Shown: positions 61 to 318 of the stretch, in pieces
Position numbering within the stretch: position 1 is the stretch's first letter
Layout of the letters: every line of letters starts with the position of its first letter
Virus genome (UHGV): UHGV-0200595
DNA: 22,035 nt
Reading direction: 5' to 3' (one strand)
Origin: a virus
Position numbers and translations under genes: made by a program
Notes under the pieces: model-generated
What the model saw: the letters and a program-made list of their open reading frames with translations, nothing else
Told to the model about the DNA's origin: nothing
The model's database searches: none

Positions 61-93
61 TACCCAATCACTTGATTTGAGCTGAAAAATTGA

Positions 94-113
94 TACTGTA
101 TATACATACAGTA
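94..113. promoter_or_regulatory. LexA (SOS) box TACTGTATATACATACAGTA
   Basis: CTGT-N8-ACAG with an AT-rich spacer. It matches the 20-mer consensus TACTGTATATATATACAGTA at 19/20 positions. It lies in an AT-rich island (about 61-318) with TTGATT/TTGATA -35-like hexamers at 73-78 and 90-95 and a TATATAAG element at 124-131. The promoter direction is not resolved. Confidence 0.7.
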
Positions 114-318
114 TTCGGCGAGATATATAAGCGTGTAAAAACCTTTCGTTAACCAGAACAGATACTAAGTGATTAAAAAATACCCATAAATATGAACGTA
201 AATGCATCAAATTTACATACAGCGCGAATTAAATGATTACACTCGTTATATTTCCTCCCGCAACAAAAATTGCGTATAACCGTGTATTTTCATTTTCCCT
301 TAGTAGCAAGGAGGTATT

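Follow-up and report, generated by a model that had tools for sequence, protein, structure and literature searches.

The closest described counterparts of the locus considered here are the SOS units of the Gifsy prophages, in which the order is terminator, LexA-box promoter, dinI, small antirepressor gene and irsA/DUF1367 (PMC3121763). The antirepressors GftA, GfoA and GfhA are controlled by LexA and bind non-cleavable repressors, displacing them from DNA, while short repressors without an S24 domain escape RecA-stimulated autocleavage and require an antirepressor (PMC3121763). For Gifsy-2, the region responsible for induction was traced to the small ORF that separates dinI from irsA, and that ORF was sufficient by itself (PMC3121763), and for Gifsy-1 a single SNP in the -10 element of PdinI-gfoA abolished induction (PMC5322425). 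In the Qin prophage, rem lies between hokD and the Q-proximal genes and its product derepresses DicA (PMC10448788). Coliphage 186 Tum and N15 AntC follow the same logic, each being the product of a LexA-repressed gene and an inactivator of a non-cleavable repressor (PMC3121763), but they are different proteins from other phage types, and Tum, at 146 aa, has a DinI-like half.

We analysed a stretch of viral DNA of 22,035 nucleotides (UHGV-0200595), referred to as the window, and consider it likely that a lambdoid Citrobacter prophage of the Rac/Gifsy type has its SOS trigger at the left end of this stretch, a predicted LexA-controlled antirepressor set against a non-cleavable repressor. The mechanism was already known in 2011; what is new here is an unannotated member in Citrobacter that lacks dinI. 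The features concerned, with their positions in the window, are the following.

37-61, plus strand: intrinsic terminator found by a terminator scan (hairpin at 37-54, AACCCGCTTTGGCGGGTT, followed by a T-run), which ends the hok/gef toxin transcript
72-77, plus strand: candidate -35 element, TTGATT
91-99, plus strand: candidate extended -10 element, TGaTACTGT, overlapping the left arm of the LexA box
94-113, no strand assigned: LexA (SOS) box, TACTGTATATACATACAGTA, a predicted operator
114-307, plus strand: AT-rich leader, presumed 5′ UTR
308-314, plus strand: Shine-Dalgarno sequence AAGGAGG, 4 nt before the ATG and conserved in the alignment of relatives
319-531, plus strand: 70-aa ORF, predicted small antirepressor of the GfoA family (phrog_1813, GfoA homology)
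567-589, plus strand: conserved stem-loop GCATG-CCTGAACAA-CATGC between the ORF and irsA
619-1218, plus strand: irsA homologue (DUF1367; Pfam PF07105, E 1e-94)
1215-1508, plus strand: ybcO-like gene for a putative nuclease (Pfam PF07102, E 7e-42), its start overlapping the end of irsA
1505-2047, plus strand: DUF1133/Q-like antiterminator gene (Pfam PF06576, E 8e-102; Phage_antitermQ, 5e-8), overlapping ybcO

A sequence-only reading of this DNA had proposed a near-consensus LexA box within an AT-rich island, and both parts of that proposal were borne out. The sequence TACTGTATATACATACAGTA at 94-113 agrees with the LexA consensus TACTGTATATATATACAGTA at 19 of 20 positions, with a single mismatch, and has the CTGT-N8-ACAG palindrome, AT-rich spacer and low heterology index (HI) of E. 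coli-type SOS boxes. It is the sole match to the consensus in the 22 kb window, even when up to three mismatches are allowed, and none of 100 dinucleotide-preserving shuffles contained a match. On an approximate HI matrix, for which 28 known E. coli SOS boxes served as training set, the box scored 0.66, better than all 28 training sites (range 1.3-10) and below the limit of about 15 set in the earlier reading; by the same approximate matrix, no further site in the window had an HI of 12 or less. Contig L003, a Citrobacter freundii contig that encodes the identical ORF, has the LexA box as its only site with an HI of 10 or less over 20 kb, the immunity region included. The window contains a second CTGT-N8-ACAG match at 15157-15172, which has a GC-rich spacer and fails on HI and was not accepted as an SOS box. 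GC content is 0.33-0.37 across positions 1-300, lower than the 0.45-0.55 found downstream.

The same reading had placed the box directly upstream of the 70-aa ORF. The ORF and its Shine-Dalgarno sequence are present, but the end of the box is 205 nt from the ATG, and the phrase is correct only in that no other ORF intervenes. On the minus strand near the box we found just a non-conserved 50-aa ORF with a TTG start and the 3′ end of hok, and a minus-strand target was rejected because that strand carries no conserved gene there.

The hairpin at 37-54 had been taken for a nin-region terminator, an attribution that we have replaced. In contigs L003 and L004, both with the identical ORF, a hok gene lies immediately 5′, so that the hairpin in the window is the terminator of a hok/gef gene located just beyond the left end; the same hairpin is found 3′ of hokD in the Qin prophage of E. 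coli K-12. This terminator shields the SOS unit from upstream transcription. The predicted promoter and its start site would come next. Its candidate -35 and -10 elements are 16 nt apart, and each of the six distinct upstream variants that have a box keeps the TTGA of the former and both the TGn and the TACTGT of the latter. The promoter would be a weak one, since TACTGT agrees with the -10 consensus at three of six positions and a promoter consensus scan missed it, leaving the -35 candidate at 72-77 uncalled. The putative overlap of promoter and box (91-99 and 94-113) has an analogue in the Gifsy promoter PdinI-gfoA, whose -10 element overlaps the LexA box (PMC3121763, Fig. 3 legend).

The proximal ~110-130 nt of the leader are common to relatives without a box, as judged by alignment, and the terminator scan predicted no terminator between 114 and 307. 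Several accounts of this leader were considered and set aside. An origin from dinI was rejected, as no remnant of that gene and no similarity to it were found in the leader. A structured leader RNA was likewise rejected (RNAalifold, 0 pairs; z-score 0.46), and an Rfam scan of positions 1-3500 gave chance-level miRNA matches only, none for the leader. A CGCAA/TTGCG hairpin 5′ of the Shine-Dalgarno sequence seemed to covary but was dropped, its arms not being positionally equivalent between relatives, and an operator for the prophage repressor was rejected on finding no 9-mers shared between the leader and the immunity region.

For the 70-aa product, the earlier statement that it belongs to no recognised family holds for Pfam and NCBIfam, neither of which gave a match, but the protein does fall in phrog_1813 (E 5.7e-18), a group of unknown function and its only match in PHROG, and it has a homologue in GfoA. 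The GfoA of ATCC14028 was recovered from IMG/VR with the part of cloning primer pp866 that anneals (PMC3121763 Table 2) as search sequence; the recovered gene encodes 82 aa from a TTG start, lies directly 5′ of irsA, and agrees at its 3′ end with primer pp867. The LT2 Gifsy-1 gene STM2621.1n was rejected as a source of GfoA: LT2 Gifsy-1 and Gifsy-2 are identical in the antirepressor region (PMC3121763), so this gene is actually of the GftA type, and it has no similarity to the ORF in the window. The profile and BLAST comparisons suggested in the earlier reading both led to GfoA, the former through a profile of the 61-sequence ORF family (hhalign, 98.3%, E 1.3e-14, 75 columns) and the latter through the 70-aa ORF itself (BLASTP, 29% identity, E 2e-7). 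GfoA in turn matched phrog_340, the Rem family (7.6e-21), phrog_1813 (3.5e-11) and, weakly, the GftA group phrog_4847 (0.039); the ORF family profile had no significant match to GftA or to Rem. Because the GfoA matches by profile and by BLASTP are significant, we assign the ORF on sequence grounds to the GfoA/Rem antirepressor superfamily, as a divergent member. The link between phrog_1813 and GfoA/Rem is a by-product of this analysis; it would place phrog_1813, phrog_340 (GfoA and Rem) and, by a weak match, phrog_4847 (GftA) in a single antirepressor superfamily.

An identical protein is found in Citrobacter freundii, where it is annotated as hypothetical, and megablast of positions 1-700 against E. 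coli genomes and phage records returned no match. The AF2 model of the 70-aa ORF (pLDDT 78) predicts four β-strands and a C-terminal helix, and a low-confidence model of GftA (pLDDT 58.6) appears to share this order of elements; a search for a similar fold in BFVD and PDB found none. A terminator-like hairpin at 458-482 (9 pairs, weak T-tail), within the coding sequence of the ORF, is probably a chance match.

The locus resembles that of Gifsy-1 GfoA in encoding a homologous small protein, in the position of the gene outside the immunity region and directly 5′ of irsA, in the near-consensus LexA box following a terminator, and in the partner repressor, here known from contig L003, an HTH protein of the short ~130-140-aa class that has no S24 cleavage domain. 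The differences are also plain. Identity to GfoA is only 29%, and the ORF has 70 aa and an ATG start as against 82 aa and TTG in GfoA; hok precedes the unit, the host is a Citrobacter, and the repressor is nearer to GtgR (46%) than to GfoR (29%). Unlike the Gifsy units, this one has no dinI between box and antirepressor gene; neither an ORF nor any similarity to DinI was found in that interval, and a 205-nt non-coding leader stands there instead. With GftA of Gifsy-2 (identical in LT2 Gifsy-1) the ORF shares the slot, the predicted LexA control and a similar size, and no characterised repressor is closer to that of L003 than GtgR, the partner of GftA, but there is no significant sequence or profile similarity between the two proteins and GftA falls in the separate phrog_4847. 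Rem of Qin is alike in that a small gene directly follows a hok terminator and precedes the Q-proximal genes without a dinI, and in its DicA-type repressor target, and it is linked to the ORF through GfoA, which matches both families. In contrast to our locus, rem has no LexA box, and the direct profile comparison was not significant.

With no Pfam, NCBIfam or solved-structure match, the protein might be suspected of some other SOS function, for example modulating RecA in the manner of DinI, inhibiting division or acting as a toxin, particularly as the majority of the dinI-less members are without LexA control and overproduction of Rem leads to filamentation, though via DicB and DicF (PMC10448788). 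We regard such a function as improbable, given the significant, full-length homology of the protein to GfoA, an antirepressor of proven function, the shared slot 5′ of irsA and the short, non-cleavable repressors that co-occur with it. On these same grounds, of the two small effectors put forward in the earlier reading, the antirepressor is the one we favour; the DinI-like modulator found no support, there being no similarity to DinI (no Pfam match at E<=0.1) and no dinI remnant in the leader.

The wider prophage was seen in contigs of the L003/L004 type, which carry the identical ORF and have a Rac-like layout. The early part comprises recE, ydaE, dicB/kil, an N-like gene and a repressor gene divergent from ydaS-ydaT, and the rest comprises replication and cargo genes, then hok, the ORF, DUF1367, ybcO and Q, followed by lysis genes, terminase and portal. 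The immunity region is outside the window, and the repressor is known from Citrobacter freundii contig L003, where it is encoded ~5 kb upstream of the ORF. It is a protein of 138 aa with HTH_3 only and no S24 peptidase domain, and it is 99% identical to the repressor of L019, 96% to that of L021 and 51% to that of L018, with 46% identity to Gifsy-2 GtgR, 29% to GfoR and 24% to DicA. The C-terminal motif LLxLFxxLPxxE is common to all of the compared repressors, and an S24 peptidase domain is absent from each of them. Contigs with a relative of the ORF at 86% identity likewise encode a short, non-cleavable HTH repressor of the GtgR/DicA type. Since the repressor is nearest to GtgR and the ORF nearest to GfoA, and GtgR is reported to be insensitive to GfoA and GfhA (PMC3121763), the pairing of antirepressor and repressor cannot be read from homology.

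We propose that in the lysogen host LexA would occupy the box at 94-113, which overlaps the weak candidate promoter just after the hok terminator. Upon DNA damage, RecA would be activated and LexA would cleave itself, and the promoter would fire to give a transcript with a leader of ~205 nt over the 70-aa ORF and probably over irsA-ybcO-Q too. The 70-aa protein would then bind its putative target, a short non-cleavable HTH repressor of the GtgR/GfoR/DicA type, and strip it from its operators, leading to lytic development. The prediction that follows is a Citrobacter prophage induced by DNA-damaging antibiotics through LexA and not through repressor cleavage.

The transcript probably spans irsA-ybcO-Q because the scan found no convincing terminator between these genes and the ORF and because the genes overlap; the Q-like gene at 1505-2047 is probably in the same transcript as ybcO. 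The same two observations would also suit a LexA promoter that mainly drives irsA-ybcO-Q, with damage switching on the late antiterminator and the 70-aa protein as a minor passenger, and the Gifsy SOS operon, too, contains irsA (PMC3121763). In Gifsy-2, however, the small ORF between dinI and irsA was needed, and alone was sufficient, for induction (PMC3121763), and the ORF in the window is a homologue of GfoA. We give this arrangement little credence as the main function of the promoter, although it is compatible with an antirepressor trigger and does not exclude it.

The family of the ORF comprises 354 clusters at 90% identity, and our reading supplies a testable function for this unannotated family. 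Among the 120 clusters listed, the named sources are nearly all Enterobacterales and the names given by the sources are all 'hypothetical protein'. In one branch the homologue is linked to dinI. We examined five phage records of this branch (Salmonella SPN3UB, Citrobacter Chris1, Aeromonas pAEv1818 and two Klebsiella phages), and each has the homologue after dinI; irsA/DUF1367 is the next gene along in SPN3UB and pAEv1818. LexA boxes with an HI of 1.4-2.6 lie 5′ in each of the four dinI-linked records that have upstream DNA, in three of them immediately before the annotated dinI. The GfoA loci, 57 in total, have a box ~389 nt upstream in 53 of the 53 with enough upstream DNA.

In the dinI-less branch, which includes the window, the upstream sequences with a box fall into six distinct variants (window/L004, L003, L018/L085, L019, L023 and L086), the box lying ~210-225 nt 5′ of the ORF. 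Both arms of the box are invariant in these variants, while central position 11 may be A, T, G or C, position 20 varies, and the flank downstream of the box diverges quickly. This invariance of the arms alongside a drifting flank argues that the box is under selection in the dinI-less branch. It also speaks against the box being a relic in a decaying prophage that now controls nothing, a view that could draw on the IS element in the early region of L003 and on the close relatives whose box was lost or never present. The box is nearer to consensus than all 28 E. coli SOS boxes of the training set (by the approximate index), the ORF is intact and conserved, and the window holds a complete set of lysis and packaging genes, all of which makes a relic very improbable.

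LexA control is the minority condition in the hok-linked branch, which is a second by-product of the analysis. Among the distinct upstream sequences of dinI-less members in IMG/VR, 2 of 55 had a box and the other 53 had none within 700 nt, and the E. coli, Shigella and Salmonella genome loci of this branch had no box; a profile search of genomes with the subfamily alignment yielded 2 genome loci only. The box-less loci are L087-L164 (IMG/VR), L007, L008, L016/L017, L021/L022 and L024/L025. One of these, L021 from Salmonella houtenae, encodes a repressor 96% identical to that of L003 and an ORF with 76% identity, without a LexA box. Given this locus and the 53 box-less upstream sequences, the protein family as such is not tied to LexA control. 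The box-less genes of the dinI-less branch thus parallel rem of Qin, which likewise has no LexA box.

Alignment of the two states placed the difference in the distal ~60-130 bp, which contain the box and the candidate promoter, the proximal leader being common to both. The box-less relatives have another AT-rich distal leader with a conserved AAAATAACCA...GATTA stretch. One speculative reading, which we think rather unlikely but worth stating, is that box and promoter form a short swappable cassette of ~60-130 bp that makes SOS-inducible those Rac/Qin-like prophages whose GfoA/Rem-family antirepressor answers a LexA-independent signal; the shared proximal leader would then be a second layer of control, and the antirepressor would integrate damage with another input. 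Relatives with and without the box, with nearly identical repressors, constitute a natural experiment on the gain or loss of SOS-inducibility, and this contrast may help to find the signal for Rem-type antirepressors.

Several observations were made on the related contigs. In L003 an IS element with an rve-family transposase lies at 5835-6946, between ydaT and the downstream early genes, and the L003 copy of the prophage may be defective. In L019 a pair of heat-labile-enterotoxin-like A and B genes (Pfam Enterotoxin_a and LT-IIB) is found at 13417-14566 beside the lysis genes, and in L023 a gene of the STb_secrete family (Pfam) at 1300-1521 takes the place of hok, immediately 5′ of the LexA box. 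As related prophages have such enterotoxin-like cargo, their induction could spread these genes. The early and nin regions of L008 (PP818812.1, 'Actinobacillus phage vB_Apl-pPE4') have 78% DNA identity to the window, with a DicA-type repressor, ydaT, hok, an ORF homologue, DUF1367 and ybcO alike. The hok-to-ORF leader of L008 closely matches the E. coli/Shigella loci L016/L017, which is unexpected in a Pasteurellaceae phage, and its host assignment may therefore deserve checking.

A third by-product is the covarying hairpin 5′ of irsA. The stem-loop at 567-589 has a near-invariant loop, (C)CUGAAC(A)(A), lies 30-45 nt 5′ of the irsA start and is followed by a conserved CTGCGCCAnnGGAG. Equivalents were found in L001 (at ~3000), L013, L012, L008, L023, L026 and L009, the last being Qin, where the stem-loop is 3′ of rem. 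The stems covary (GCATG/CATGC, CTGG/CCAG, ACGG/CCGT, AGG/CCT and GGG/CCC), with 91.8% of cells paired as against 31-37% in slid controls and with compensatory changes in four of the five pairs; Rfam gave no match for this element. A protein-binding RNA hairpin, a processing site and a translational operator are all possibilities for its role.

Farther downstream, between the methyltransferase and holin genes, a HicB antitoxin gene lies on the minus strand at 2723-3154 (Pfam E 2e-28). A HicA toxin gene of ~60 aa is called beside HicB in L004, and neither gene is called in the otherwise similar L003, so that the HicAB pair looks like a moron-type insertion.
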